Notes under the pieces: generated by a model | Database searches by the model: none | What the model was told of the DNA's origin: nothing | The model's input: the letters and a program-made list of their open reading frames with translations, nothing else | Source of the DNA: Candidatus Daviesbacteria bacterium | GTDB taxonomy: Bacteria; Patescibacteriota; Microgenomatia; Daviesbacterales; UBA10151 | Direction: 5' to 3' | Length of the DNA stretch: 64,000 bases | NCBI GenBank assembly: GCA_016176405.1 | Contig: JACOXG010000004.1 | Coordinates: forward strand, 9,082 to 73,081 | Program-made: the position numbers and the translations under genes | Shown: piece by piece, positions 4,855-63,777 of the stretch | How positions within the stretch are numbered: the stretch's first letter is position 1 | Layout of the letters: each line of letters begins with the position of its first letter

Positions 4855-5459
4855 TGATGAGTGATGGATTCAAAAAACGAATGAGTCAGAATTCAAGATT
4901 GCTAATACTATTTAGTGTTTTAATAATTCTAGTGGGATCTGGCCTTTTGTGGTCTGGGTTAAAGCTACCTGCCATCCCAATTCAACAAGCTTCTCCAACT
5001 CCCCTGGTGGAGACTGTACCAATTGCCACTAAATCAGCAAGCATTGATGTGGAGGGCGAGAGAGCATTTGTGAAGAGGGTGATTGATGGGGACACCATTG
5101 AACTAGATAACGGTTCAACAGTTAGACTGCTTGGTATAGATACACCTGAAACTGTTGATCCCAGAAAACCGGTTCAGTGTTTTGGCAAAGAAGCCTCCAA
5201 TAAACTCAAAAGCTTGGTCTTAAATCAGGTGGTCATTTTGCAAAAAGATGTTTCCGAAACTGATAAATATCAAAGATTATTAAGATATGTTTTGCTGCCT
5301 TTGGATAACGATCGGCTCCTCTTTATCAATGATTATTTAATCAGAGAGGGCTTTGCCAAAGTTTTAACTATTCCTCCTGATGTCAAATATACGGAACAAT
5401 TTCTAGAGGCTCAAAGGGAAGCCAGGGAAAATAAAAAGGGTCTTTGGGGAAGATGCTGA
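4854..5459 (+). CDS. Thermonuclease (staphylococcal nuclease, SNase) family secreted nuclease
   Basis: SNase motifs VIDGDTIEL, RLLGIDTPET, KYQRLLRYV; N-terminal TM/signal. Confidence 0.8.
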   Translation: MMSDGFKKRMSQNSRLLILFSVLIILVGSGLLWSGLKLPAIPIQQASPTPLVETVPIATKSASIDVEGERAFVKRVIDGDTIELDNGSTVRLLGIDTPETVDPRKPVQCFGKEASNKLKSLVLNQVVILQKDVSETDKYQRLLRYVLLPLDNDRLLFINDYLIREGFAKVLTIPPDVKYTEQFLEAQREARENKKGLWGRC

Positions 5460-6001: not shown

Positions 6002-7515
6002 ATGGTTGAAGTTCTGCCCATTAGAATTTTAAGAGAAGAAGATGGACCTATTTTTGGAAAAGAGGGTGTGGCTCTGGGGAAACTTGACAGAGCCGGTATA
6101 CCGGTAGCATCAGGATTGGTGATAACTGCTCCCCATCTTAAGCTGAGAGTTATTTTAGAGCATCATGATTTTGGATCCAAAGAAGTTTTTGAGCAGTCCC
6201 TAACCTTAGTTAAAAAAGAAATAGAAAAAATTCCCATTCCTGAAGTTTTAGAGCGGGAAGTTGGTCAACACACTCACTTTTGGCTGGCAGATTCTCAAAT
6301 TAAATCAGTTAAAAAACTTTGGTTAAGTTTACTGTTTATTTGGATAGAAGAAATTAAAAATAGACTCTGGCAGGACGGATTTTACCAGGGGATCACGGAT
6401 GGATTGGAATCACAAACGGTGATTTTTGTTAAAAAAATAGAGGGATGGATTGGAATCACAAACGGTGATTTTTGTTAAAAAAATAGAGGCCTGGGGAAAT
6501 GCCTATTTTGATCCCATTCAAGATGAGGTGGTAGTTCATATAAAGCAGGATAAACTTCATCCAAATGATTTGGAAAAGTTGCAAGAAATGGTCAGGCTGG
6601 CCAATAAGAAACTATTTATTCCGCACCAATATGATTGGATTTTAGATAAAGGATTAAAGATCGTTGGAATAAAACCGTTCACACCACCCTTTACTTCACA
6701 TCTATCTGATTTGGTAATTCCTGGCATGTCTACTTATCCCATACAAATAACCCCACTTCATGGGAACGGCATGGGTAAAGAGGCAAAAAGAAGTGTGGTT
6801 AAGGTTTTTTTGGATTTATCAGATGGACTAATCATTGAAAGGGAGGCTGATGGAGTCTATATTGCCGCGGAGAAAATTTTTGATTTAAACAAACCCCGAG
6901 ATTCTTTCGAAGATTTGGTTTTCAGAGTAGTTGAGGCGGCTGTAACTTTTCCCAATAGTCAGATACTTTTTAAATTGGCAGATATGTCAGAAGGAATGGG
7001 AAAGGTAAGAGGTACCTTAAGACTGTTGCATCAAAAAAGTTTATTGGAGCCGCTGATTTGTCAGAGGAGTAGGGGAACTCGTAAAAATCAAACAAGAGTT
7101 ATCTATTAAGAAATTAAAACGCCAAGCCTCTTTACAGTTTTGGTTGGAAATAGCTGTGCCGGAAAATATTATTAATTTGGAGGATTATTTAATGGTGGGA
7201 ATAGATGGAGTAGTTTTAAATTTGGATGAGTTGATTGCTCATTTTAACGGTTTTGACCAAACGCAAGAAGACTTGGTATTTTACAAAAATGAGGTTTCCG
7301 GATTGCTTAAATTTTTAGAAGATAGCATAAAACTGCTTAATAAATCCAAAATTCCTTTTATAGCCTATGGATCTTTAAGCCAATACCAAAAAGTTTTGGA
7401 ATTTTTGGTGGAAAAAGGAGTATATGGAGTGGTGGTGGAAAGATATGAAGTCCCTTCAGCCAAAGATTTGTTGTACCAGACAGAAAAAAGGATGATTTTA
7501 AGAAAATCCTCCTAA
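6002..7515 (+). pseudogene. PEP-utilizing enzyme-like gene (PEP synthase/PPDK-type N-terminal PEP/pyruvate-binding domain + C-terminal TIM-barrel-like domain) broken into three ORFs (6002-6478, 6450-7109, 7144-7515)
   Basis: N-terminal GKEGVALGKL...GIPVASGLVIT resembles the ATP-grasp nucleotide-binding region of PEP synthase; first break coincides with a 46-bp tandem duplication (not a multiple of 3); second frame change near 7050-7060. Confidence 0.45.
6398..6489. repeat. Perfect 46-bp tandem duplication (gatggattggaatcacaaacggtgatttttgttaaaaaaatagagg x2) inside the PEP-utilizing-like gene
   Basis: Two identical adjacent copies read directly; creates the frame break between ORFs 6002-6478 and 6450-7109. 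Confidence 0.9.
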
Positions 7516-20575: not shown

Positions 20576-20594
20576 TATTAAACTACGTTCCCAC

Positions 20595-20656
20595 ATCTCA
20601 AGTGGGAAGCTAGATTGTAAATTCCATCTCAAGTGGGAAGCTAGATTGTAAATTCC
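20595..20656. repeat. 31-bp perfect tandem direct repeat x2 (atctcaagtgggaagctagattgtaaattcc)
   Basis: Two adjacent identical copies with no spacer; overlaps the stop codon of the minus-strand ORF 20641-21297. Confidence 0.9.
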
Positions 20657-21297
20657 GCTAAGAATTCCTCTATTTGTGCTTGAGAGATACCAAGAAGCCT
20701 CAGATCTTTTAGGTCTTTTGGTCTGGGAGGTGCAATGTGTAGAGGTGTACTATGTAAATCAACTGATTTACTAAATGTTAATGCTAGAGCATCAAGAATA
20801 TAGACTGGTCTTCCATTAAATTGTACTGGGGTTGAATGACTAAAAAGAATCCTAATATTAGGTTCACTACCAGGAATTCTACGTGATTCGAGCCAGCGTT
20901 TTGCGCTTTTGGAAGGGGTTCCTGCAAATTTTTTCTCTGTCTCACTATCTTCGCTTCGAAGTACTAAATCTACATCCTCTGGAATTTGTCTTGTAGGTAT
21001 TAATAAATGTACCGCTACCCCACCTTCTATAAGGTATTGTAATTGTCCATTTTCAACTTGTGGAAAAATAGAAATTAAAAGATCTAGAATTTTATCCCAG
21101 GAGGGTTGAGGATTTTCCCTATATAATGCTTCCAATGAAGGATGCCTTGGATAGACTATTATTGGTGGGAGTTCTTTCATAAGTTGAATTATACAATAAT
21201 TCATGCATTTTCTTCGGGTCTTCTTAGTGGTAAAATGGAATTTTGTCCCAACGTCATTCCTGCGAATGCTCGCTTCGCGAAGCGAGCAGGAATCCAA
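20641..21297 (-). CDS. Hypothetical protein, possible nucleotidyltransferase-fold (GG...DVDLV); annotated N-terminus is probably repeat-derived
   Basis: IEGGVAVHLL...EDVDLVL motif; first 30 codons are the reverse-strand translation of palindromic element B, so the real start is probably MNYCII (about 21204). Confidence 0.4.
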   Translation of the reverse strand: MDSCSLREASIRRNDVGTKFHFTTKKTRRKCMNYCIIQLMKELPPIIVYPRHPSLEALYRENPQPSWDKILDLLISIFPQVENGQLQYLIEGGVAVHLLIPTRQIPEDVDLVLRSEDSETEKKFAGTPSKSAKRWLESRRIPGSEPNIRILFSHSTPVQFNGRPVYILDALALTFSKSVDLHSTPLHIAPPRPKDLKDLRLLGISQAQIEEFLAEFTI

Positions 21298-21345
21298 TTA
21301 ATAAAATCACGTTCAGAATTGGATCCCCGCCTACGCGGGGATGAC
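21253..21345. repeat. Palindromic element family B (two hairpins: cattcctgc..gcaggaatg and atccccgc-cta-gcggggat) with an extra nested palindrome (gctcgcttcgcgaagcgagc), 18 bp upstream of the uvrB start
   Basis: Near-identical copy in dinB (63114-63188) and a shorter inverted copy in tkt (46931-46987); translated on the plus strand it gives VIPAN...AGIQ...ELDPRLRGDD, a motif widespread in other bacteria. Confidence 0.8.
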
Positions 21346-21362: not shown

Positions 21363-23375
21363 ATGGCAAAGTTTATGATAGTTTCTGACTTTAAACCTAC
21401 TGGGGATCAGCCACAGGCTATTGAGAAGCTGGTGAGTGGATTAAATAATAATGAGAAACATCAAGTTTTGCTTGGTGTGACAGGTTCTGGAAAAACTTTT
21501 ACCATGGCCAATGTGATCCAAAAAGTCCAAAGGCCTACCTTAGTTATTTCTCATAACAAAACTCTTGCAGGGCAGCTGGCTCAAGAATTCAGGTCCCTTT
21601 TTCCCAACAATGCCGTGGAATATTTCGTTTCATACTATGATTATTACCAGCCCGAGGCTTATGTGCCTCAATCAGATACTTATATAGAAAAAGAGACAGA
21701 AATTAATGAGGAAATTGAAAAATTAAGGCTTTCCACTACTACTTCTTTGATGACCCGAAAAGATGTGATTGTGGTGGCCTCAGTATCCTGTATCTATAAC
21801 TTAGGTTCTCCTGTTGAATATGGCGGAGCTATTTTGGAGCTTAAAGAAGGGGTAAGATCTGGATTCCAATCCATTTTGAAGATGTTACAGAAAATGTATT
21901 ACTTGCGGAATGATTTAGATTTTAGAAGATCTACTTATAGAGTTAGAGGTGATACATTGGATATTTATCCTTCATACGCAGATTCTGCTGTTAGAGTAGA
22001 GTTTTTGGGGGACAAGATTGAAAGAGTATCTCATCTTGATCCTTTAACTGGAACAGTTACACCTACTTCCCAAACTTTGACTATTTTTCCTGCCAAACAC
22101 TACATTACTTCTGAGGCCAGATTTGAAGGAGCTTTAAAACAGATTCAGGAAGATTTGGTGGCCAGATTAAAACAGCTTAGGAAACAGGGAAAACTGTTGG
22201 AAGCTCAAAGATTAGAGCAAAGAACTTATTATGATCTGGAAATGATCAAAGAGTTTGGATATTGTAATGGAATTGAGAATTATTCCAGGTATTTTGATGG
22301 AAGAGCTCCAGGTGAGTCACCTTTTACTTTAATGGAATATTTTCCTAAGGATTTTTTACTAATTATTGATGAATCACACATTACTCTTCCTCAAATTAGG
22401 GGTATGTATAATGGTGACAGATCCAGAAAAGAAACCTTGGTTGAGTTTGGATTTAGGCTTCCCTCAGCTTTAGATAATAGACCGCTAAAATACGAGGAAT
22501 TTCAAAGGAAAATAAATCAAGCTATCTATGTTTCAGCCACTCCTGATGAGTATGAATTGAGTTTGGCTGGGGCTCACCTCCGAGGTGAGGGCAAGGTGAC
22601 ATCTGGCACACACCTCGGAGGTGTGGTGGAACAACTGGTCAGGCCAACAGGGATCGTAGATCCACAAATTTCTGTTAGAGGAACCAAAGGACAAATTGAT
22701 GATGTGATCAAAGAGGTAGAAAAACGCGTGGAACGTGGAGAGCGAGTCTTGATCACTACACTTACCAAAAGAATGGCAGAGGATCTGACTGACTATTTGA
22801 AAGAGAAAGGAATTAAGGTGAACTATTTACATTCAGATATTGAGACATTAAAAAGGTCTGATATTTTACAATCTTTAAGATTAGGGGAATTTGATGTGAT
22901 TGTGGGAATTAATCTTTTAAGAGAAGGTTTAGATTTACCAGAAGTAACTTTAGTCATAATCTTAGATGCTGATAAAGAAGGATTTTTAAGATCAAAAACC
23001 TCACTTATACAAACCATGGGCAGAGCTGCTAGAAATATTGGAGGAGAGGTAATTATGTATGCAGATAATGTGACAAAGTCTATGAAAGCTGCTATAGAGG
23101 AGGTGGATAGAAGAAGACAATACCAGGAGGAATATAATAAAAAACATAAAATAAAACCTAGAAGTATTGAGAAAGCTTTAAGGGAAAGGTTAATTGAGCA
23201 AGTTGAAGAGTTAGAAGAGCAATTGGGTAAAAAAGAGTTAAGAGTGGAGGATATTCCACCAAAAGAAAGAGATAAAATGTTAAGAAATTTAGAAACTCAA
23301 ATGAAACAAGCAGCAGAACTTTTGGATTTTGAGGAAGCAGCAAGACTTAGGGATCAAATTAAGGAGCTAAGTTAG
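21363..23375 (+). CDS. uvrB: Excinuclease ABC subunit B (UvrB), carrying an in-frame 18-aa insertion from a palindromic repeat
   Basis: Walker A GVTGSGKTFT, helicase motifs, beta-hairpin region, C-terminal UvrBC coiled-coil domain (EEAARLRDQIKEL); insertion [18 protein letters not shown] between YELSLAG and VEQLVRPTG. Confidence 0.95.
   Translation: MAKFMIVSDFKPTGDQPQAIEKLVSGLNNNEKHQVLLGVTGSGKTFTMANVIQKVQRPTLVISHNKTLAGQLAQEFRSLFPNNAVEYFVSYYDYYQPEAYVPQSDTYIEKETEINEEIEKLRLSTTTSLMTRKDVIVVASVSCIYNLGSPVEYGGAILELKEGVRSGFQSILKMLQKMYYLRNDLDFRRSTYRVRGDTLDIYPSYADSAVRVEFLGDKIERVSHLDPLTGTVTPTSQTLTIFPAKHYITSEARFEGALKQIQEDLVARLKQLRKQGKLLEAQRLEQRTYYDLEMIKEFGYCNGIENYSRYFDGRAPGESPFTLMEYFPKDFLLIIDESHITLPQIRGMYNGDRSRKETLVEFGFRLPSALDNRPLKYEEFQRKINQAIYVSATPDEYELSLAGAHLRGEGKVTSGTHLGGVVEQLVRPTGIVDPQISVRGTKGQIDDVIKEVEKRVERGERVLITTLTKRMAEDLTDYLKEKGIKVNYLHSDIETLKRSDILQSLRLGEFDVIVGINLLREGLDLPEVTLVIILDADKEGFLRSKTSLIQTMGRAARNIGGEVIMYADNVTKSMKAAIEEVDRRRQYQEEYNKKHKIKPRSIEKALRERLIEQVEELEEQLGKKELRVEDIPPKERDKMLRNLETQMKQAAELLDFEEAARLRDQIKELS
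22575..22623. repeat. REPIN-like element family A (cacctcCgaggtg - 23 bp - cacctcGgaggtg) inserted in-frame in uvrB
   Basis: Two 13-bp palindromes in inverted orientation; same arms at 25176-25224 (uvrA), 63728-63777 (dinB) and related palindromes flanking the HuH transposase gene at 48785-48809/49524-49543. Confidence 0.85.
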
Positions 23376-23688: not shown

Positions 23689-23825
23689 ATAAAGTAATCT
23701 TATACCCCTTTAAAAATCTTGTCAAATACCTCATAATATGGTCTTTAAAGATTCAAGGGCTTCCAAAATCTTGCAAAAGAGATTATAATATCCCAGTCAT
23801 TTTTCGGGAATTTTTCGTATGCCTA

Positions 23826-25532
23826 TTGACAAAATTATTATCAAAGGTGCTCGTGAGCACAATCTTGGCTTTTGATACCCTATATGCTGAGGGGCAGAGA
23901 AGATATGTTGAATCCCTTTCTGCTTATGCCAGGCAGTTTTTGGGGGTCATGGATAAGCCTGATGTAGATTTAATTGAAGGATTATCTCCTGCTATTTCTA
24001 TTGATCAAAAAGGAGTTTCACACAATCCCAGATCTACTGTTGGAACAACTACTGAAATTTATGATTACTTAAGGCTACTTTTTGCCAGAATTGGCCATCC
24101 TCATTGTCCTATTTGTGGCAGGGAAATTAGTAGGATGAGTGTGGAACAGATTGTGGAAATAGTCATCAGTAGTCAGTCATCAGCTATCAGCAAGAAGGGG
24201 AGAAGAATCATGGTTTTGGCTCCTGTTGTTAAAGATAGAAAAGGGGAGTACTCCTCGCTTTTTGAAGATTTAAGAAAGAAAGGTTTTTCTAAAGCCAGAG
24301 TTGATGGGCAGATTAGGGATTTGAGTGAGGATTTTGTATTGATTAAAACTAATAAGCACACTATTGATGTCGTAGTTGATCGGCTCGTGTTAGAGTCTAG
24401 AGTCAAGAATCTAGAATCTAGTGAGACACAATATAGACTCTCGACTCTAGCGACTAGACTCTCACAAAGTATTGAAACAGCAGTTAAATTAGGTGAAGGA
24501 TCTGTAATAGTTTCTGATGTTTTAGATGCTTCTTTAGAATTTCCCCAGAGCCCTAAAAAAATGGAAGATCACCTATACTCTGAAAGATTTGCCTGTCCTG
24601 TTGACAATATAGCTCTATCTGAGGTTGAGCCCAGATTATTTTCTTTTAATTCCCCCCACGGAGCTTGTCCAACATGCTCCGGATTAGGTTCTCTTTTAGA
24701 GATTGATCCGGAAATGGTCTTAAACCCAATTTTATCCATTGCTGAGGGTGGAATTTTACCCTGGCAAAAATTAGCCACTCATGAAACCTGGTTTTCCAGG
24801 CTAATTGAGGCAGTGGGTAAGGAATATGGCTTTGACTTAAACACCAGATTAGGACAGCTTTCAGATGAGGCTAAAAAAGTGCTTCTACATGGTTCAGGAG
24901 ACGATGAATTCAGAGTGGAAGGTAGAAATAGACAAGGCAGATGGACCTCATTTTATTCTGAATTTCAAGGCTTAGTTCCATATTTAAAGCAAAGATACCA
25001 AGAATCTGAATCAGATTATGTCAGAGCAGAAATTGAAAAATATATGTATAAAGAAACATGTCCCAAATGTAAAGGGGCTAGGCTTAAAGATGAGGCTTTA
25101 TCAATCACCATTGATGGTTTAAATATTGCTGAGGTGACCACCCAATCTATCAACGAAGCTTTAGATTGGATTGCTCACCTCCGAGGTGAGGGCAAGGTGA
25201 TGTCTGGATCACACCTCGGAGGTGTACTCTCGGAACGAGAATGGCAAATTGCCACCTCAATTGTCAAAGAAATTAAAGCTAGATCACAGTTTTTGATTGA
25301 TGTAGGTTTAGATTATTTAACTTTAGATAGACCCTCTATGACTTTGGCAGGAGGGGAGTCACAAAGGATCAGATTGGCCTCTCAAATTGGTTCAGGGTTA
25401 TCTGGAGTTTTATATGTTTTAGATGAACCCTCAATTGGTTTACATCAAAGGGATAATGCCAGGTTGATTGATACTTTAAAGAGACTGCGGGATTTGGGAC
25501 GGAGGGAAAATTGTCGATACTGGAACCCCTGA
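23826..25532 (+). CDS. uvrA: Excinuclease ABC subunit A (UvrA), N-terminal/central segment; gene appears disrupted
   Basis: [26 protein letters not shown], zinc-finger Cys pairs, ABC signature [12 protein letters not shown]; a separate upstream start [16 protein letters not shown] (23819) is in another frame and the NBD-I Walker A segment is absent; contains three repeat-derived in-frame insertions. Confidence 0.85.
24391..24463. repeat. Palindromic element family C (tagagtctagagtc...agactctcgactctagcgactagactct) inserted in-frame in uvrA
   Basis: Related copy at 52335-52401 (intergenic in the MacAB-like operon); encodes [24 protein letters not shown]. Confidence 0.7.
25176..25224. repeat. 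REPIN-like element family A inserted in-frame in uvrA (encodes [18 protein letters not shown])
   Basis: Same 13-bp inverted palindromic arms as the uvrB copy; spacer differs at a few positions. Confidence 0.85.
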
Positions 25533-25590
25533 CCAAATTAAAAAGAGCCCAGCCTCTTTAACAGGTCAATATTTATCCGGAAAAAAGCAG

Positions 25591-26622
25591 GTGAGAGTTA
25601 ATGGAGAACTGAGAAGACAATATGTGAACATGGGACATTTAAAAATTAAGGGAGCCTCTCAGCATAATTTAAAAAATATCAATGTAGATTTTCCTTTGGG
25701 ACAATTTATAGCAATCACTGGAGTTTCAGGTTCAGGTAAATCAACTTTAATTCATGATATTTTATATAAAGCTTTAGCTCAGAAAGTTTATAAAACTAAG
25801 GAAAGACCAGGAGCTCATAAGGAATTGGAAGGTATGGAGTATGTGGACAAGGTGGTTTTAGTTGATCAATCACCAATTGGTCGGACTCCCCGCTCAAATC
25901 CAGCCACCTACACAGGCGCTTTTACTTTTATCAGAGATTTATTTGCCCAAAGTCCTGAGGCTAAAATCAGAGGTTATGGACCTGGCAGATTTTCTTTTAA
26001 TGTCAAAGGTGGCAGGTGTGAGGTTTGTGAGGGAGAAGGACAGCTCAAAATTGAGATGCAGTTTTTACCGGATGTGTATGTGACTTGTGAGGCATGTAAT
26101 GGTAAAAGATATAACAGAGAAGCTTTGGATATTCATTTTAAAGAAAAAAATATCTCAGATGTTTTAGAAATGACTGTGGAGGAAGGGTTAAAGTTTTTTG
26201 AAAATATTCCTAATTTAAAAAATAAATTACAGGTGTTAAATGATGTGGGGTTAGGTTATATAGGGTTAGGTCAGCCAGCCCCAACCTTGAGTGGTGGTGA
26301 AGCCCAAAGAATAAAACTCTCTTCAGAGCTGTCCAAAAGACCAACAGGACACACAGTTTATATTTTGGATGAGCCCACCACTGGTTTACATTTTGCGGAT
26401 ATAGAAAGGCTTTTGACCATTCTAAGAAGACTGGTTAATTTTGGGAATACGGTCATAATTATTGAGCATAATTTAGATGTGATTAAAAATACCGATTGGG
26501 TCATAGACTTAGGCCCAGAAGGTGGGGATAAAGGAGGGCAAATTATAGCAGAAGGCACTCCCCAAAATATAGCCAAAATCAAATCTTCATATACCGGTCA
26601 ATATTTGGCAAAAATACTCTAA
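25591..26622 (+). CDS. uvrA: UvrA C-terminal segment (NBD-II); frame extends upstream to about 25495
   Basis: Walker [12 protein letters not shown], zinc finger [17 protein letters not shown], signature [12 protein letters not shown], Walker [13 protein letters not shown]-loop IIIEHN; separated from the upstream segment by a frame change plus loss of about 29 aa (NBD-I Walker B/H-loop). Confidence 0.85.
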
Positions 26623-26659: not shown

Positions 26660-28591
26660 ATGTTTAAGAAGCTTTTCAGCCAAGTTATGAGTTATTGGTT
26701 ATGGGTTATGAGTGTCTTATTGTCTTTACTCATAACTCATAACTCATCACTCATCACTCCTGTCTATGCTGCTGAGGAGTTTGCTACCTCATATGAGGTG
26801 GTTTATGACATTACCGAAGATGGAATAACCACAGTTACTGAAAAAATTACCTTAATAAATTTAACTTCTCAATATTACGCCAACCAATTTAAGCTGACCA
26901 TTGGTGCCACCGAGGTTTTTGATGTCAAAGCCTCTGATGATGCTGGTGTCATGGAAGTCAATACCAAAAAGGAAGAAACTAGCACCTCTATTGAGGTTAA
27001 GTTTAACCAACAGGTGGCAGGTCTAGGTAAACAATTGCCCTGGACTTTACAATTTAAATCCAAAGATTTTGCCGAAAAAGTGGGAAAGGTTTGGGAAGTG
27101 AGAGCTCCCAAAATTTCCTCCAGCACCAATTTGGAGTCTTATAATCTGACCATTGCAGTTCCCCAAAGCTTTGGTGAACCAACCCTGATTACACCTAACC
27201 CCAAAAGCCAAACCAGCTCCACAGGTAGGCTATTTTTAACCTTTACCGAGGACCAGATTACCCAATCAGGAGTTTCTGCCAATTTTGGTACTATCCAGCT
27301 TTTTGATTTTGATCTGACCTATCATCTGGAAAATGACAATTTAGTACCCATCTTAACCAATATTGCTCTGCCTCCTGATACTGCTTTCCAGGATGTCATT
27401 TTTCAAAGGATTGAACCTAAGCCAATTAATGTCTCGGTTGATGAGGACGGCAATTATTTGGCCTGGTATCGACTAACCAGAGGCCAAAAATTGGATATTC
27501 AAGTAGTTGGTTCAGCCAAATTATATAGTAGTTCCAAAGTTAAAAATCCTATCTTAAGCGATGATCTCAAAAGAAAATATACCCGAGCAGACAAATATTG
27601 GGAAAGGGATAATCCCCAAATAATCTCCTTACTGACACAAATCCTGGGTGACACCCCTCCTGCCACTACATCAGAAAAGGCCAAATTAATTTTTCGCTAT
27701 GTGGTCAATAGCTTAAAATATGATCAATCCAGACTGACTGACGATATTGAAAGATATGGAGCAGTGACTGCTTTAAATAATCCTACTTCTGCGGTTTGTA
27801 TGGAATTTACTGATCTGTTTATTGCCCTGTCCCGGGCAGCTGGCATTCCTGCCAGGGAGCTCAATGGTTTTGCTTACTCAGCTAACCCAGCCTTAAGACC
27901 ACTTTCTCTAACCAAAGATATTTTGCACTCCTGGCCAGAATATTTCGATGAGAGAGTCGGTTGGGTCATGGTAGACCCCACCTGGGAAAATACCACTGGT
28001 GGGGTAGATTATTTTTCCAAACTTGATTTAAATCATTTTGTTTTTGTCACCAAAGGTTTATCTTCCATTCAACCGATTCCAGCCGGCTCTTATAAATACA
28101 GTGGGCAAGACAGCCGAGATGTCAAGGTGGTTTTATCTGATAAGGATTTTTTGGGGAAGGCCCAGATTAATGTGGAGGTTGAAGCTGCGAACCCCCTTCT
28201 GTCAGGTTTTGGAGGCAAAATAAAAGTTAAAATCACCAATCTAGGCAATGCTCTTTTTTCTTCTACCCCTTTTTCTTTGTCGAGTTCCCAAATATCTATT
28301 CAGTCCCACCAATCCTCAACCACTGGCCCTATACCTGCTTTTGGGACTGCTGAATTTGAATATAATGTCAAAACCAAATCATTATTTGATTCTTTTGATG
28401 ATAATTTAGTGGCTTTAGTCGGTGGGCAGAAATTTGAAAACCCCATCAGTGTTAGGCCTTTTATTCTCTTTCAAAGAGTACCCCTAATTATTTTCTCCAG
28501 CTTGATAGCTTTGATGGTGGTCCTTTATTTAACCATTCTTTTGGTCTTTACCTTAAGAAAAAGACACCTTTGGATATTTAGACCCAAATGA
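26660..28591 (+). CDS. Secreted transglutaminase-like (Cys-His-Asp) domain protein with C-terminal TM anchor
   Basis: Transglutaminase-core motifs AVCMEFTDLFIALSRAAGIPAR...HSWPEYF...VMVDPTW; signal peptide encoded by a heptamer inverted repeat. Confidence 0.7.
   Translation: MFKKLFSQVMSYWLWVMSVLLSLLITHNSSLITPVYAAEEFATSYEVVYDITEDGITTVTEKITLINLTSQYYANQFKLTIGATEVFDVKASDDAGVMEVNTKKEETSTSIEVKFNQQVAGLGKQLPWTLQFKSKDFAEKVGKVWEVRAPKISSSTNLESYNLTIAVPQSFGEPTLITPNPKSQTSSTGRLFLTFTEDQITQSGVSANFGTIQLFDFDLTYHLENDNLVPILTNIALPPDTAFQDVIFQRIEPKPINVSVDEDGNYLAWYRLTRGQKLDIQVVGSAKLYSSSKVKNPILSDDLKRKYTRADKYWERDNPQIISLLTQILGDTPPATTSEKAKLIFRYVVNSLKYDQSRLTDDIERYGAVTALNNPTSAVCMEFTDLFIALSRAAGIPARELNGFAYSANPALRPLSLTKDILHSWPEYFDERVGWVMVDPTWENTTGGVDYFSKLDLNHFVFVTKGLSSIQPIPAGSYKYSGQDSRDVKVVLSDKDFLGKAQINVEVEAANPLLSGFGGKIKVKITNLGNALFSSTPFSLSSSQISIQSHQSSTTGPIPAFGTAEFEYNVKTKSLFDSFDDNLVALVGGQKFENPISVRPFILFQRVPLIIFSSLIALMVVLYLTILLVFTLRKRHLWIFRPK
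26684..26759. repeat. Inverted arrays of heptamer-like direct repeats (gttatgag... / ...ctcataac) encoding the signal peptide of the transglutaminase-like protein
   Basis: Left arm gttatgagttattggttatgggttatgagtg versus right arm ctcataactcataactcatcactcatcactc. Confidence 0.7.
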
Positions 28592-44618: not shown

Positions 44619-46070
44619 CTAAATTCTACAAAATTCCATGGATGGTTCTAACCATTTTCTTCCATCAGCCTCAATTAACTGATCAGCTTCTTTTGGTCCC
44701 CAAGAACCAACTTTATAAATTATGGGTTTACCCCGAACTTTAGAAAGGGGATCAGTAAAGGCCCACTGGGCTTCAACTTCTTGGGCATCATTAAAAAAGG
44801 TCTGATCTCCTCTGATGGTATCAACCAGTAACCTTTCATATGGATCAGGTACAAAATGTGTATGAGGATCAATTCTATAGCAATACTGCATATACTCTGG
44901 TTGTAGTTTTACCCCATGGCCAGGCAGTTTAGTTAAGATTTTTAAAACTACTCCCTCGTTTGGCTGAATTCTGTAAACCAAAATATTGGGTTCATCCCCG
45001 CTTTTTAGGTTTTTGAATAACCTGTTGACCGGATTTTTGAAGACAAGGGAAATTTCCGTGACATACTGTTTTAGTTTTTTTCCAGCTCTGATATAAATGG
45101 GAACATCTTTGAATCTGTCATTTTTGATAAAAGTTTTTAGGGCATAATAGGTATCGGTGGTAGAGTTGGAATCAACATTTGGCTCTTTGTTATAACCTTC
45201 ATATTGACCAAATACCACTTTATTAGGCATTGGGACTAAACTTTTTAGAATTTTAATCCTTTCTTTGGTAACAGCCTCATTAGTAAAGCGCGATGGAGCA
45301 TCCATGGTGGCAAAGGCCAGCATCTGTAGCTGATGATTTTGTCCCACATCTTTCAATGATCCAACCTGGTCATAATACCCACCCCTTCTGCCAATGCCAA
45401 AATCCTCAGTGGCTGTGATTTGAATATGGTCAACAAAATCTTTATTAACTAAAGGCTCAAAAATATCATTGGCAAATCTAAAAGTTAAAATGTTTTGCAA
45501 GGTCTCTTTACCTAAATAATGATCTAATCGATAAATTTGATCCTCTGTAAAATATTTCAGTAAGAGTTGATTTAAGGCTTTGGCCGAAGGTAAATCTGAG
45601 CCAATTGGTTTTTCAATCATCAGCCTGACCCAACCGCTGTTTTGCAAATTTAATTTATACTTTTGTAGATTTTCAAAAATATAATGATATAAATCTGGAT
45701 ATGTAGCCAGATAGTAGATTCTATTGTCATGTTTTAAATAATTCTGTAACTTTTTATATAATGCCGGATCTTGAATTTCACCACTTAAGTATTTAAGTCT
45801 TTTGCAAAGTTTACTGAAGATATCTTCTTTGATTTCATGTTGATGATGAACATTTTCTAAATGTAGAACCTTATGTACGTATTCTTTCAGAGTTTGATCA
45901 GACATTTCCCTTCTGGCGATGCCTAAAATAGTCATATCGGCAGGTAGAAGATTTTTTTCTTCCATATCATAGAGAGCGGGGATAAGTTTGATCTGAGCCA
46001 AATTGCTGGTGATACCAAAAATTACCAAGGCGAAAGATTCCATGGGAATAGAATATATCATATGATACAA
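44619..46070 (-). CDS. zwf: Glucose-6-phosphate 1-dehydrogenase
   Basis: NAD(P) fold GxxGDLA-like N-terminus; G6PD signature RLDHYLGKE. Confidence 0.9.
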   Translation of the reverse strand: MYHMIYSIPMESFALVIFGITSNLAQIKLIPALYDMEEKNLLPADMTILGIARREMSDQTLKEYVHKVLHLENVHHQHEIKEDIFSKLCKRLKYLSGEIQDPALYKKLQNYLKHDNRIYYLATYPDLYHYIFENLQKYKLNLQNSGWVRLMIEKPIGSDLPSAKALNQLLLKYFTEDQIYRLDHYLGKETLQNILTFRFANDIFEPLVNKDFVDHIQITATEDFGIGRRGGYYDQVGSLKDVGQNHQLQMLAFATMDAPSRFTNEAVTKERIKILKSLVPMPNKVVFGQYEGYNKEPNVDSNSTTDTYYALKTFIKNDRFKDVPIYIRAGKKLKQYVTEISLVFKNPVNRLFKNLKSGDEPNILVYRIQPNEGVVLKILTKLPGHGVKLQPEYMQYCYRIDPHTHFVPDPYERLLVDTIRGDQTFFNDAQEVEAQWAFTDPLSKVRGKPIIYKVGSWGPKEADQLIEADGRKWLEPSMEFCRI

Positions 46071-47567
46071 TTTCGGACAATGAATAATCTAAGAGAGCTA
46101 GCTAAGCTAGTTAGGTACTTTATCTTAATTTCCACCACTGAGGCAGGGTCTGGGCATCCTACCTCATCTCTATCCGCCACCGACTTGATGGTGGCTCTTT
46201 TTTTTGGAGGATTTCTTCATTTTGATTTGAAAAATATAGATAATGCCAATAATGATCGTTTAATTTTCTCTAAAGGTCACGCCTCCCCTCTTTTCTACTC
46301 AATTTATGGGGCAGCCGGTGCAGTTTCTGAAAAGGAGCTTCTGACTCTGAGAAAGTTTGACAGTCCATTAGAGGGGCATCCTTCCACGGAGTTTCCCTTT
46401 ACCGAGGTTCCCACAGGATCTTTGGGTCAAGGTTTATCTGTTGGAGTTGGTATGGCTATTAATGCTAAATATCTGGATAAATTGGGATATAAAACTTTTG
46501 TACTATTGGGTGATTCTGAGATGGCAGAAGGATCTGTTTGGGAGGCAATTCAGCTGGCAGCATTTTACAAATTGGACAATTTGGTGGCAATTTTGGATGT
46601 GAACAGATTGGGACAAAGAGGGCAGACTATGTATGGACATGATGTTAAAGCATATCAGCAAAGAGTTTCCAGTTTTAGTTGGAAAACTATTGTAATTGAT
46701 GGACATAATTTGGCTCAGATTAAAAGGGCGTATCAGCGAGCCTTAAAGACTAAAAATGTCCCTACTATGATTATTGCTAAAACTATTAAAGGTAAAGGAT
46801 TTTCAATTTGGGAGGATAAAGATGGTTGGCATGGGAAGGCACTTCCTAAGGAGGATTTGGAAAGGGCTTTGAAGGAATTGGGTTATATAAATAAGAAACT
46901 TCGTGGAAAACTCAGCTTACCCACAAAGTCATCCCCGCTTTCGCGGGGATCCATAAATAATTGGATTCCTGCCTCCGCAGGAATGACAAACTATTCCCAA
47001 GGTGACATGGTGGCAACAAGAAAGGCCTATGGTAATGCTTTAGTAAGGCTTGCTCCCAAATATCCTGATATGGTGGTATTAGATGCCGAGGTGAATAACT
47101 CTACTTATTCAGAATTTTTTGCCCAAAAATTTCCCCAAAAATATTTTGAGATGTTTATTGCTGAACAAAATATGGTGGGAGTGGCTTTGGGACTTTCAAG
47201 GCGGGGCAAAATGCCTTTTATCTCCACCTTCGCCGCCTTTTTAACTAGAGCTTTCGATCAAATCAGAATGGCTCAGTATGCCAAAACTAATATTAAGTTT
47301 TGTGGTTCTCATGCAGGAGTTTCCATAGGGGAAGATGGGCCCTCTCAGATGGGATTAGAAGACATTGCCATGTTTAGGACAATTATGGGTAGTGTGGTGT
47401 TGTATCCTTCTGATGCTGTCTCTTGCGAAAAATTGGTGGAAGAGGCTGCAAAGCATTATGGCATGGTTTATATTAGAACCACCAGAAAAGATACACCTGT
47501 TATTTATTCTAATAATGAGCAATTCAAAGTGATCATGACCAGGTTACTATTTTGGGAGCAGGGATAA
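46062..47567 (+). CDS. tkt: Transketolase (N-terminal TPP-binding + pyrimidine-binding domains), with an in-frame repeat insertion and a 3' frameshift
   Basis: TPP motifs GSGHPTSSLS, GDSEMAEGSVWEA; 19-aa insertion SSPLSRGSINNWIPASAGM from palindromic element B; frame changes around 47527-47545 into ORF 47552-47896. Confidence 0.85.
   Translation: MIQFRTMNNLRELAKLVRYFILISTTEAGSGHPTSSLSATDLMVALFFGGFLHFDLKNIDNANNDRLIFSKGHASPLFYSIYGAAGAVSEKELLTLRKFDSPLEGHPSTEFPFTEVPTGSLGQGLSVGVGMAINAKYLDKLGYKTFVLLGDSEMAEGSVWEAIQLAAFYKLDNLVAILDVNRLGQRGQTMYGHDVKAYQQRVSSFSWKTIVIDGHNLAQIKRAYQRALKTKNVPTMIIAKTIKGKGFSIWEDKDGWHGKALPKEDLERALKELGYINKKLRGKLSLPTKSSPLSRGSINNWIPASAGMTNYSQGDMVATRKAYGNALVRLAPKYPDMVVLDAEVNNSTYSEFFAQKFPQKYFEMFIAEQNMVGVALGLSRRGKMPFISTFAAFLTRAFDQIRMAQYAKTNIKFCGSHAGVSIGEDGPSQMGLEDIAMFRTIMGSVVLYPSDAVSCEKLVEEAAKHYGMVYIRTTRKDTPVIYSNNEQFKVIMTRLLFWEQG
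46931..46987. repeat. Palindromic element family B (short form, inverted orientation) inserted in-frame in tkt
   Basis: atccccgc-tttc-gcggggat hairpin plus cattcctgc-ctcc-gcaggaatg hairpin; 57 bp = 19 codons. Confidence 0.8.
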
Positions 47568-47896
47568 CTCTTCATGAGGCTCTAGCTGCTTATGAGGAGC
47601 TAAAGAAGAGTAATATATTTGTTCGAGTAATTGATTTATACAGTATTAAGCCTTTAGATACTGATACCCTGAAAAAAGTTGCGAGAGAAACAAAAGCTAT
47701 TATTACTGTAGAAGATCATCATTTAGAAGGTGGGATGGGGGAGGCAGTGGCCACAGCATTGGCTGGTGTAAATATACCTGTTATCAATTTGGCTGTTACC
47801 AAGGTCCCCAAGAGCGGTAAGCCTGCTGAACTTTTAGACTATGAGGAAATTTCAGCAGGTGCTATTATTGATAATGTTAAAAAGATCATTAAATGA
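47552..47896 (+). CDS. tkt: Transketolase C-terminal domain segment (continuation of tkt after frameshift)
   Basis: Transketolase_C-like motifs (VTILGAGITL...KPLD); in the +1 frame relative to the upstream segment. Confidence 0.75.
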   Translation: MGAGITLHEALAAYEELKKSNIFVRVIDLYSIKPLDTDTLKKVARETKAIITVEDHHLEGGMGEAVATALAGVNIPVINLAVTKVPKSGKPAELLDYEEISAGAIIDNVKKIIK

Positions 47897-48756: not shown

Positions 48757-48784
48757 GGATTTTTAAATAAGTATTAGTTGCTAT

Positions 48785-48809
48785 CATTCCTACCTCGGAG
48801 GTAGGAATG
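48785..48809. repeat. REP-like perfect palindrome (cattcctacctc-g-gaggtaggaatg) 3' of tal and flanking the HuH transposase gene
   Basis: 25-bp palindrome whose core acctcNgaggt matches family A arms; followed by a T-run, so it may also terminate tal. Confidence 0.8.
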
Positions 48810-48840
48810 AATGTGCACGTAGGGTTTTATCCAGTATTTT

Positions 48841-49518
48841 TTATTCAAGAAGCTTATGTTTAATTAATTCAAGCTTTCTAGCATAATCTACTTGATCTAG
48901 TACAAATTGTTCATATCTTTTGGAATTTTTAAATAATGAGATAACAACTTCCTTATTGCAAATTTTATCTTCTTGTAATTCAAGATAGGATACATATGAT
49001 GACCAAGGATAGTCTCTTAAGTTTTTAACTAAATAGGAAGCAATTGGGTTTAGGTGTATATATCGTGATAAATGTATCAATTGTTCATCTGATTCCACTC
49101 TGACAGCCTTAAATTGTCCTTGGAAGAGTGGCCCAACGCGCTCATGACGTGTATTAAAGTACTTAGTATAGCTGTTAGAAACCTTATTAATGAATTCAGA
49201 GATTCCCTTTTCTTCGAGCTGCCGCAACATAAAGTGATAATGGTTAGGCATTAGGCAATAGCAAATTATTTCCACAATTCTTTTGTTCTTCTCATACTCA
49301 AAATCCTTAAAACGATTTAACTGAGAAAATTGAGGTTTGGGTCCCTGGAATTGGTAATAGTAGATCGTCTCTAAGAATCGATTGTAATCTCTTCGATCAT
49401 CAAATACCGGCATCTTTGCCACTCCACGATTAAAAACATGGTAGACTTGGCCAGTGGCCAATGGAATTATTCGATAGGGCATAAATTCTACTAAACCACA
49501 TATTACCCAAGGTGTCAA
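48841..49518 (-). mobile_element. IS200/IS605-type HuH tyrosine transposase, probable REP-associated tyrosine transposase (RAYT)
   Basis: HuH motif LMPNHYHFM, catalytic Tyr region LSRYIHLNPIASYLV (compare E. coli RAYT YIYINPVKHGWV); flanked on both sides by REP-like palindromes of the same family dispersed in the window. Confidence 0.75.
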
Positions 49519-49523
49519 TACAT

Positions 49524-49543
49524 TTCCACCTCGGAGGTAGGAG
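49524..49543. repeat. REP-like palindrome (ttccacctc-g-gaggtaggag) immediately 5' of the HuH transposase gene
   Basis: Matches the left-flank palindrome and family A arms. Confidence 0.8.
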
Positions 49544-52334: not shown

Positions 52335-52401
52335 GACTAGAGTCGAGAGTCAAGAGTCTAGATTTGTTTTCCTAGACTCTAGATTCTAGCGACTAGACTC
52401 T
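52335..52401. repeat. Palindromic element family C between the MacB-like permease and ATPase genes
   Basis: gactagagtcgagagtcaagagtctag ... ctagactctagattctagcgactagactct; related to the insertion in uvrA. Confidence 0.7.
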
Positions 52402-62398: not shown

Positions 62399-63113
62399 CA
62401 ACTCTCAGAACCTATTAAAGTTTGGGTATTTTTTGAAAATGGAACTTTAAAGCCTCATTTATTTTTCTGGAATAAAAGACAAATTAAAATAGAAAAAATT
62501 AATTTAGTTCATACCACTAAAAATGGCTCTTCTCCTGCTTATCATTTTTCAGTTTCCTCTAGAGGGAATTTTTACAGACTAGGATTTGATTTATTCACTT
62601 TAAAATGGTTTCTGGAGGCTGTGGAAGAGGGATAGCTGGTTGCTCCTGGGAGCTATGGGTTGATTCTGAAGAAGCAATTTCTCCAGGAAGTGGTCCGTGA
62701 AATATAGAACTACCAAGGGGACACGGCCTCCAAGAGACATCATTAGGTGCGTGGGTTTGGGGTAATTCCTTCTCTACCATGACACGTACAAATTAAAATA
62801 ACTGTTAAATTATGTCAAGAGGGATTTATGAGAACCATTTTACACATTGATTTTAACTCATACTTTGCCTCTGTTGAACAGCAGGCAAATCCACACCTTC
62901 GGGGTAAACCTATTGGGGTAACTGGAGGAGATAGACTAAAGAGGACAGTGATTGGGGCAGCCTCAATTGAGGCCAAAAAGTTTGGGGTAAAAACCAGGAG
63001 ATTCTGATAAGTATTTAGAAACAACCAAGAAATTTATAAATATTTTAAAGGACTTTAGCCCAAATTTGGAGGTGTTCTCTATAGATGAGTGCTTTTTGGA
63101 ATTACCCTTTTCT

Positions 63114-63188
63114 GTCATTCCTGCGAATGCAGGAATCCAATTAAATGAATCACGTTCGGAATTGGATCCCCGCCTACGCGGGGATGAC
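63114..63188. repeat. Palindromic element family B inserted in-frame in dinB (encodes VIPANAGIQLNESRSELDPRLRGDD)
   Basis: Near-identical to the 21253-21345 copy minus its nested palindrome. Confidence 0.85.
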
Positions 63189-63727
63189 TTGGTAAAAGTT
63201 GCCCAAGATATTAAATCTCGTATCCGCTCTGAAATTGGAGAATGGATCAGATGCTCTATAGGTATTTCATATAACAAGCTCATGGCCAAGTTGGCTGGGT
63301 CTTTACAAAAACCGGATGGACTGGTGGTTATTCCAAACCAGAAAGAGGCTATCAAAGTGTTGGATAAGATAGAATTGGATGAAATTTGTGGGATCGGCGG
63401 AAGGATTAAAAAAAGATTAAATAATATGGGAGTGTTCGGTTTTAAACAGCTAAGATATGTACCTCTAGAGGCTCTGCTGGCCTCATTTAAGAGCTATGGA
63501 CAGATTTTATATAACATGGCTCGGGGAATAGATTATTCACCCATCATTCCCTTTTATGAAAAAGGAGAAGTAAAAAGTGTGGGGCATAGACATACCATTG
63601 ATCACGATACAAATGACCCAGCAGAAATAAAGCAAATTCTTTTAAAACTTACAGAACTGGTGGCCAGAAGACTGCGGGCTAAAAAAATGGTAGGGAAAAC
63701 TGTCCATTGTTGGTATCGTCAGGCATT

Positions 63728-63777
63728 CCACCTCCGAGGTGAACCCAGTATTTCAACTAGTGCACACCTCGGAGGTG
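63728..63777. repeat. REPIN-like element family A inserted in-frame in dinB (encodes HLRGEPSISTSAHLGGV)
   Basis: ccacctcCgaggtg - 23 bp - cacctcGgaggtg. Confidence 0.85.

Follow-up and report, generated by a model that had tools for sequence, protein, structure and literature searches.

We describe here a short palindromic element, called family A, which is translated in the frame of a local open reading frame (ORF) of the uvrA gene of Candidatus Daviesbacteria bacterium. It lies in a stretch of 64,000 nucleotides (contig JACOXG010000004.1, positions 9,082 to 73,081, assembly GCA_016176405.1), in the following called the window. With a probability of roughly 0.7, the element is one copy of a family of doublets resembling the REPINs (REP doublets forming hairpins) or BIMEs (bacterial interspersed mosaic elements), in which two copies of a repetitive extragenic palindrome (REP) stand in inverted orientation. 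The doublets seem to be tied to a gene of the REP-associated tyrosine transposase (RAYT) type, which occurs once in the window, 24 kb away from the uvrA element. The features that carry this assignment are:

25173-25226, plus strand: family-A element in uvrA, a 54-nt unit composed of GCT, arm, 23-nt spacer, arm and TA
22572-22625, plus strand: family-A element in uvrB, with arms at 22575-22587 and 22611-22623, read as 18 residues in the same frame as the uvrA copy
63729-63777, plus strand: family-A element in a dinB-like Y-family polymerase gene, with identical arms and a different spacer, read as HLRGEPSISTSAHLGGV
48844-49482, minus strand: RAYT/TnpA-REP-like Y1/HUH transposase gene, 213 aa, with the HUH motif NHYHF and a C-terminal YIHLNP
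49527-49539, minus strand: single REP 5' of the transposase gene, TACCTCCGAGGTG on the gene strand, 44 nt before the ATG, with 12 of 13 positions as in the arm
48784-48811, minus strand: single REP 3' of the transposase gene, TACCTCCGAGGTA at 48791-48803, a hairpin with a 12-bp stem, 37 nt after the stop

The arms of the uvrA element (CACCTCCGAGGTG at 25176-25188 and CACCTCGGAGGTG at 25212-25224) are exact reverse complements of 13 bp each, enclose the spacer AGGGCAAGGTGATGTCTGGATCA (25189-25211) and span 49 bases from arm to arm. Each arm is itself an interrupted palindrome, CACCTC-N-GAGGTG, with C or G in the center. Translation in the frame of the local ORF (23826-25532) gives 18 residues. 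The uvrB copy is situated 2601 nt upstream, both copies have the same spacer variant (AGGGC...), and 49 of 53 bases are shared with all 4 mismatches in the spacer. This confirms the near-identity of the two in-frame copies that had been noticed in an earlier inspection of the window without database searches, hereafter the sequence-only reading. The site of the dinB copy is also filled in the two loci L045 and L016 (labels with L denote loci from other genomes, P0001-P0120 are UvrB proteins). When up to 2 mismatches were allowed on both strands, 16 arm matches were counted in the window compared to 0.28 expected, which excludes chance. The window copies each fold to a 13-bp stem with -27 to -33 kcal/mol (z -2.9 to -4.2). 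In an Rfam scan tRNAs alone reached the gathering score and the sub-threshold hairpin matches were spurious, hence a known RNA family was ruled out for the element.

The connection to REPs comes from the transposase gene. In L115, a Y1_Tnp gene is located between uvrB and uvrA, and a tblastn homologue is found in the window at 48970-49443 on the minus strand, i.e. within the transposase gene listed above. The encoded protein scores 35.5 bits against Pfam Y1_Tnp (cutoff 23), its best NCBIfam match is the REP-associated tyrosine transposase (REP_Tyr_transpos, 62.3 bits, E 4e-17), and its best PDB match is 4ER8, the E. coli TnpA-REP, with the HUH motif and the tyrosine of YI.INP (YIxxNP) aligned. 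No tnpB adjoins the gene. Three arm-like 13-mers were found outside doublets in the window, and two of them flank this gene; the upstream one is followed on the gene strand by gaaatgtaTTGACA (TTGACA follows the REP). Homologues with 71-76% identity in L116, L117 and L118 have [CT]ACCTCCGAGGT[GA] on both flanks, which in L118 corresponds exactly to the family-A arm. At 61% identity, the homologue of L119 has CACCCTTGGGGTG as its flanks, and seven homologues at approximately 35-42% identity show other short palindromic flanks, mostly xACCT-NNN-AGGTx. Hence, the flanking palindrome changes with the transposase clade, that is, enzyme and repeat co-vary. REP/BIME/REPIN-RAYT systems are defined by an arrangement in which the transposase gene is flanked by REPs of its own and the REP co-varies with the transposase clade (PMC3333891, PMC3116915, PMC5581495). 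Moreover, in four genomes (window, L116, L117 and L118) the REPs surround the gene at fixed distances in a common 5' CTCC context, and in all four the gene is located among genes of the pentose-phosphate pathway. Such a conserved neighbourhood is expected for a vertically inherited, single-copy RAYT (PMC5581495).

The doublet structure is equally consistent with this assignment. A BIME consists of two REPs and a short linker of variable length (PMC3333891); in family A the linkers of 8-36 nt vary in length and sequence while the arms stay identical, resulting in doublets of 34-62 nt, and within 661 kb the arms occurred as 98 doublets compared to 11 singlets. Where the arms do vary, their pairing is retained. 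The uvrB copy of L113 has the complementary arms CACCTTCCAGGTG and CACCTGGAAGGTG, of which the left one is also found in uvrA of L121 together with a right arm shorter by one base. Complementarity was likewise kept in the variants CACCCCCGGGGTG / CACCCCGGGGGTG of L114, with the reciprocal form in L089, and CACCTCGGGGGTG / CACCCCCGAGGTG of L004. Among ten distinct arm pairs, 97.7% of the cells were paired and 5 of 13 pairs had changed on both sides, a result equalled in 0 of 500 shuffles, and the central arm bases were complementary in 96 of 98 doublets.

A search for exact arms with one genome per species returned 81 loci, nearly all of them from Microgenomates (Davies-, Curtiss-, Roizman-, Levy- and Beckwithbacteria). 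Daviesbacteria are a Microgenomates lineage and belong to the Candidate Phyla Radiation (CPR, Patescibacteria). At least 8 of the exact-arm loci came from one related metagenome-assembled genome (MAG), and the window contains 3 doublets in 64 kb. Several loci (L010, L018, L055-L057, L067, L073, L079 and others; 36-41% GC) were deposited as uncultured Gammaproteobacteria, Pseudomonadales or Myxococcales. The MAGs labelled Gammaproteobacteria look like mislabelled relatives, because the uvrA of the two loci tested, L056 and L073, is 75-80% nucleotide-identical to that of the window; a broad host range across phyla was therefore ruled out. A phage origin was also ruled out, since the viral contig collection held no exact-arm copy.

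Family A is found inside genes of very different kinds. Stop-to-stop ORFs of at least 120 aa contain 75 of 86 exact-arm copies (87%) and account for 90% of the DNA, hence family A does not avoid genes; approximately 13% of the copies are intergenic. The host proteins comprise the CCA-adding enzyme, ATP-dependent DNA ligase, PurL, a SpoU methylase, GatA, topoisomerase I, SecA, UvrD, aminoacyl-tRNA synthetases, Pol I, DinB, UvrA/B and glycosyltransferases, and identical variants of 41 and 43 nt were found in unrelated genes and genomes. This diversity of housekeeping hosts rules out a specificity for nucleotide excision repair (NER) or DNA repair in general; the link to NER is incidental.

The sequence-only reading had proposed to examine coding copies for a bias in length and orientation, and this check, run across the loci, revealed both. 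From arm to arm, 64 of 74 copies measure 1 mod 3, and the remaining lengths change the frame within the element. Two main frames are used in ORFs of at least 150 aa, HLRG...HLGG in 47 copies and TSEV...TSEV in 25, while the third frame occurs in 2. The consensus unit of 54 nt (gCT, arm, AAGCTAAGGTGACACCTGGATCA, arm, TA) is, as read from this consensus, stop-free in frame 0 alone in forward and in frame 2 alone in reverse direction. Sense orientation relative to the host gene was observed for 27 of the 28 confidently oriented copies inside ORFs, and reverse frame 2 has no stop in 30 of 31 oriented copies.

The comparison with related genomes shows filled and empty sites. Filled uvrA sites are found in the window, L056, L073, L008 (a 34-nt version), L120 and L121, and empty ones in L082, L083, L088, L090, L099 and most other relatives, including the closest one. 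Same-site copies whose spacers and host genes diverged by 20-40% have arms identical at 26 of 26 positions; this applies also to L120, which was found via protein similarity without the use of the arms and shares 15 of 23 spacer positions with the window. When filled and empty versions were compared at both NER sites (empty: L082 and L083), the net difference amounted to 42 nt and 9-12 nt of host sequence had been exchanged, which means that these are not clean insertions. No direct repeats flank the copies and a target-site duplication is not visible, with filled and empty orthologues too diverged to fix the exact insertion boundaries. The UvrA tree joins the window to L082, whose site is empty, at 96% bootstrap, and none of its 200 replicates grouped the filled genomes as a monophyletic set. 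Empty uvrA sites keep the ancestral residues W-x-K-x-L-K, which the filled sites lack. A single ancestral uvrA insertion followed by losses conflicts with both the tree and this residue pattern and appears less probable.

Across Daviesbacteria, the UvrB linker (22560-22630 in the window) acts as a hotspot for insertions. An unbiased sample of UvrB proteins shows it empty (SLAG-x-x-NVAEQ) in most Daviesbacteria, approximately three quarters of the sequences. Filled linkers have at least 5 unrelated insert types, several of them palindromic (HTPGVSTQ.HTGC, NPGLS.QFQTGIG). Part of these inserts belong to family A, in intact or degenerate form (HLPG, HPRG..HPGG, HLEG, HLGS), with family-A-like inserts in L008, P0004 and others; further linkers contain a second family (SVIPANAGIQ...DSRLRGND), other palindromic families or longer inserts. 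A similar hotspot exists in dinB after FLEL, where the window (63105-63190) has the second family, L045 (3090-3137) a family-A doublet and L016 a longer unrelated insert. Taken together, the pattern of filled and empty sites indicates that family A is patchy and lineage-specific and makes recurrent use of the same permissive loops.

The sequence-only reading had also suggested a recent spread by transposition or gene conversion. Copies within one genome do resemble each other more, with a mean spacer similarity of 12.96 of 23 positions compared to 10.50 between genomes (permutation p<0.0005); the uvrA-uvrB pair ranks third among 1128 spacer pairs, and the top three pairs are all within-genome. 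However, the word recent is not established, because five between-genome pairs from different genes reach the equal similarity of 19/23 and the uvrA site is filled in at least 5 other genomes, among them other species. A spread by a transposition-like process is made plausible by the dispersed repeats, the empty sites in L082 and L083 and the RAYT-type gene with the same 13-mer flanks. Anatomy, in-frame position, family distribution, hairpin covariation and the transposase gene with its flanks are observations, while a mobilisation by this enzyme and its chemistry are proposed by analogy.

How such a system might operate can be outlined accordingly from the better known relatives. The doublet would consist of two inverted near-palindromic REPs of 13 nt (CACCTC-C/G-GAGGTG) with a variable linker, and as single-stranded DNA or as RNA it could fold into a hairpin of 13 bp. 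If the transposase works like E. coli TnpA-REP and the enzymes of IS200/IS605, it would bind to the hairpin of the REP on single-stranded DNA, cleave beside it and join the ends again, a chemistry that would copy or move doublets and keep the resident copies matched to the enzyme. In gene-dense genomes nearly all insertions would fall within genes, and those copies would persist that add 3n bases, leave the host frame free of stops and lie in loops tolerating approximately 14-18 extra hydrophilic residues, such as the inter-domain linker of UvrB or the uvrA site. Its 3n length and the lack of a stop codon are the probable reason why the uvrA element was retained in its tolerant loop, and the uvrA and uvrB copies would be close relatives within the REPIN population of one genome. 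The claim of the sequence-only reading that the element lands in such a way that the frame is kept is thus better replaced by survivorship: what remains are tolerated, stop-free copies of 3n length, and the 42-nt net change came with the replacement of host bases.

Several observations weigh against the assignment to a REPIN-RAYT-like system. The connection between transposase and elements rests on an association in four genomes, and the three 20-kb loci around the homologous transposases of L116-L118 have no doublets. With 62 bits, the NCBIfam score does not reach the equivalog cutoff of 80, and 4ER8 is a weak PDB match (E 0.03). Classical REPs have 20-40 nt, compared to 13 nt here. Dispersed copies have a weak gCT as 5' flank and TA as 3' flank, and the GTAG/CGTC tetranucleotide is not adjacent to them; the gene-flanking copies read cTACCT...AGGTAg with the conserved CTCC on the 5' side, and CTAC/GTAG is found within the stem of this T-variant alone. 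Furthermore, the 27:1 sense bias goes beyond what stop codons explain, because reverse frame 2 is open in 30/31 copies, and the filling of the same uvrA site in non-monophyletic genomes is not predicted by simple random transposition.

The recurrent filling of the uvrA position in non-sister genomes, the sense bias and the missing enrichment between genes leave room for a more specific version, namely a REPIN lineage adapted to life inside genes, where a RAYT-REPIN system of gene-dense CPR bacteria persists as translated loop inserts of essential proteins. We regard this extension as tentative, possible rather than probable. The 54-nt unit would then be coding-compatible, with arms stop-free in six frames, stop-free sense frames and a loop peptide rich in Gly, Ser, His and Lys. 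Its orientation would perhaps be tied to the sense strand of the host through a transposase acting on the non-template strand of transcribed DNA, and the UvrB linker, the uvrA site and the dinB position after FLEL would be recurrent landing or retention sites for several families.

Other explanations of family A were considered. The one closest to the preferred assignment assumes a selfish palindromic repeat of the kind known as Rickettsia palindromic element (RPE), unrelated to the Y1 transposase and spread by an unspecified route or solely through gene conversion or through homologous recombination among copies and among strains, with the 13-mers around the transposase gene as merely further insertions. 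Elements in frame in loops of housekeeping proteins are indeed typical for RPEs (PMC3184786), same-site copies in non-monophyletic genomes could reflect recombination, and the net 42-nt replacements at both NER sites differ from clean transposition products. Nevertheless, this appears unlikely in view of the fixed REP arrangement on both transposase flanks in four genomes and of the flanking palindrome that shifts with the transposase clade. Moreover, a recombination tract around the uvrA copy was ruled out, because sliding-window identity displayed no local switch of the nearest relative. Still less probable is a nucleic-acid signal of benefit for the host, i.e. a hairpin in mRNA or DNA kept as inter-domain translational pause, as RNase or stability signal, or as protein-binding or uptake site. 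The unchanged arms at the same site despite 20-40% divergence, found also in L120, the pairing preserved by compensatory changes, the strong sense bias and the presence of GGAGGTG (Shine-Dalgarno-like) and CACCTCC (anti-Shine-Dalgarno-like) in the arm would all fit such a role. But most close relatives do without the element at these sites, and approximately 412 kb of neighbouring DNA from 31 related loci contained family-A arms in one variant form only, in L089. In addition, the arms are often degenerate in the unbiased UvrB sample (HLPG, HLEG, HLGS), other repeat families fill the same loops, and Rfam gave no match. A signal similar to DNA uptake sequences was ruled out specifically, given the very rare singlets, the low density and the absence of arms from most relatives.

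An intragenic invertible switch, in which a recombinase flips the 23-nt spacer, introduces stops and thereby causes phase variation of repair genes, could make use of the perfect inverted repeats, and reading the consensus spacer in reverse gives stops in frames 0 and 1. We consider it very improbable, since the assemblies show the sense direction 27:1, 23 nt is a very small span for the synapsis of a recombinase, an invertase adjoining the copies was not observed and the linked enzyme is a Y1 HUH transposase. Hardly credible at all are a selected protein motif (HLRGE...HLGG) or an assembly or adapter artefact, although the peptide does recur in many proteins. The motif was ruled out because 25 copies have the same nucleotides read as TSEV...TSEV and the frame changes within some copies; moreover, the host proteins are unrelated and about 13% of the copies are intergenic. 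An artefact is contradicted by elements at conserved sites and in frame, found by independent studies and assemblers.

Among known systems, REP/BIME/REPIN-RAYT of E. coli and Pseudomonas come closest in mechanism and architecture (PMC3116915, PMC3337134, PMC3333891, PMC5581495, PMC6006769). Common to both are the short GC-rich palindrome, the inverted doublet with variable linker and hairpin, the Y1/HUH gene flanked by the same units, the co-variation of unit and clade, the stable neighbourhood and the resemblance of copies within a genome. In contrast, REPs are extragenic by definition, whereas the copies of family A lie overwhelmingly in protein-coding genes and are translated. The unit of 13 nt and the doublet of 34-62 nt are also smaller than the REPs of approximately 20-40 nt with their spacing of approximately 70-110 nt, a GTAG/CGTC tag is missing beside the dispersed copies, the host belongs to CPR/Patescibacteria, and the copy number seems modest (3 in 64 kb). 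Because of the location in genes, the lack of a clear tag and the transposase score below the RAYT cutoff, family A is best seen as a variant of REP/REPIN-RAYT and not as a plain member.

In lifestyle the RPEs are closest (Ogata et al. 2000, summarised in PMC3184786), being palindromes in frame in tolerant parts of unrelated housekeeping genes of a small genome. They differ by their length (105-146 nt compared to 49-54 nt here), their phylum, the lack of any sequence similarity and the candidate transposase present here. Hairpin elements derived from IS200/IS605 and MITEs (small transposable elements with inverted repeats; PMC3184786, PMC10969869) are likewise non-autonomous, hairpin-forming and presumably mobilised in trans by a Y1 transposase on single-stranded DNA. 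Unlike in these, a core bordered by long terminal inverted repeats is absent from family A, and a target-site duplication is not visible; and unlike IS200/IS605, the gene resembles a fixed single-copy RAYT, not a multi-copy insertion sequence, and lacks an adjoining tnpB. The coding palindromes in mitochondria of Nematomorpha (PMC6649704) and sponges (PMC2800124) are inverted repeats in reading frames with both arms translated, but they are organellar, mostly much longer and have no link to a transposase, so that they serve as an analogy alone.

Family A would thus unite two phenomena, a hairpin doublet matched to a RAYT and translation inside conserved housekeeping genes of CPR bacteria. In the literature searched we found no account of REP/RAYT systems or of in-frame palindromic repeats in CPR bacteria, an absence that is limited to this literature and no proof of novelty. 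If confirmed, REPIN-RAYT biology would extend to Patescibacteria, protein loops would represent a habitat and the elements a steady source of loop insertions in very conserved proteins, and an enzyme-substrate pair would become open to in vitro testing. To our knowledge, no transposase is known for RPEs, and we know of no explanation for the movement of such in-frame palindromic repeats; if the adaptation to genes proposed above were true, this puzzle would gain a concrete enzyme and mechanism. On the practical side, inserts of family A and of the other hotspot families explain much of the length variation among Microgenomates orthologues and should be read neither as functional motifs nor as lineage markers.

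The two NER host genes differ in their integrity:

21363-23375, plus strand: uvrB, intact, 670 aa, with 100% identity to a protein at NCBI from a Candidatus Daviesbacteria MAG
23819-26622, plus strand: uvrA, interrupted, in two ORFs (23826-25532 and 25591-26622)

In UvrB, the insert adds 16 residues compared to solved UvrB structures and is placed in the linker YELE-HSPGVVEQ between the two helicase domains. Residues 404-418 form a low-confidence coil in the AlphaFold model; the mean pLDDT of this model (predicted local distance difference test) is moderate, 66.5, so that disorder of the loop is only weakly suggested. In UvrA, the first ATPase module has a variable loop between two of its helices, and the insert is located there. 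The description of this element as in frame in uvrA applies to the local ORF, yet the complete uvrA gene is interrupted in this record: compared to orthologues, 77 nt are missing after 23866 (Walker A) and 86 nt near 25499 (Walker B region), and both gaps shift the frame. Relatives encode intact UvrA proteins of 963-1022 aa. The protein collection searched with UvrA contained no fully identical protein, which suggests that the deposited record already carries a broken gene.

A clean gap of 53 nt compared to orthologues was also seen in dinB at approximately 63000, where a conserved DinB segment is lost and the frame shifted; the relatives are intact. The uvrA gaps (23866/23867 and approximately 25499/25500) and the dinB gap, with 77, 86 and 53 nt, are each 2 mod 3, and N bases are absent from the window. 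They could reflect either genuine pseudogenes or scaffold gaps that were closed where the sequence is highly conserved. Among the other filled uvrA genes, that of L121 has an in-frame TGA, and in L120 a false stop is created at approximately 5215-5275 by CTGTCTCTTATACACATCT... at the end of the ENA contig, which is Nextera adapter sequence.

Further repeats were observed in the window. A third repeat type with TAGACTCTAGA-like units (24391-24462) forms another in-frame insert of uvrA with approximately 15 extra residues, which most orthologues do not have, and a 29-mer at 52373-52401 is 93% identical to it. The second GC-rich palindromic family (GTCATTCCTGCGAATGCAGGAATCC ... GGATCCCCGCCTACGCGGGGATGAC) occurs at 21286-21345, 46923-46988 and 63113-63193; it is read in frame in dinB as SVIPANAGIQ...DPRLRGDD, has another copy inside the transketolase ORF and fills the UvrB linker of another Daviesbacteria genome (P0003). 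Transketolase itself is split into two overlapping ORFs in different frames, 46062-47567 with the N-terminal and pyrimidine-binding domains and 47552-47896 with the C-terminal domain, which is either a frameshift or a natural split. An AT-rich perfect inverted repeat of 13 bp (AGTTATGAGTTAT ... ATAACTCATAACT, 26683-26745) with a 37-nt loop marks the start of a transglutaminase-like ORF. Finally, exact tandem duplications are present at 6397-6488 (46 nt, twice) and 20594-20655 (31 nt, twice).

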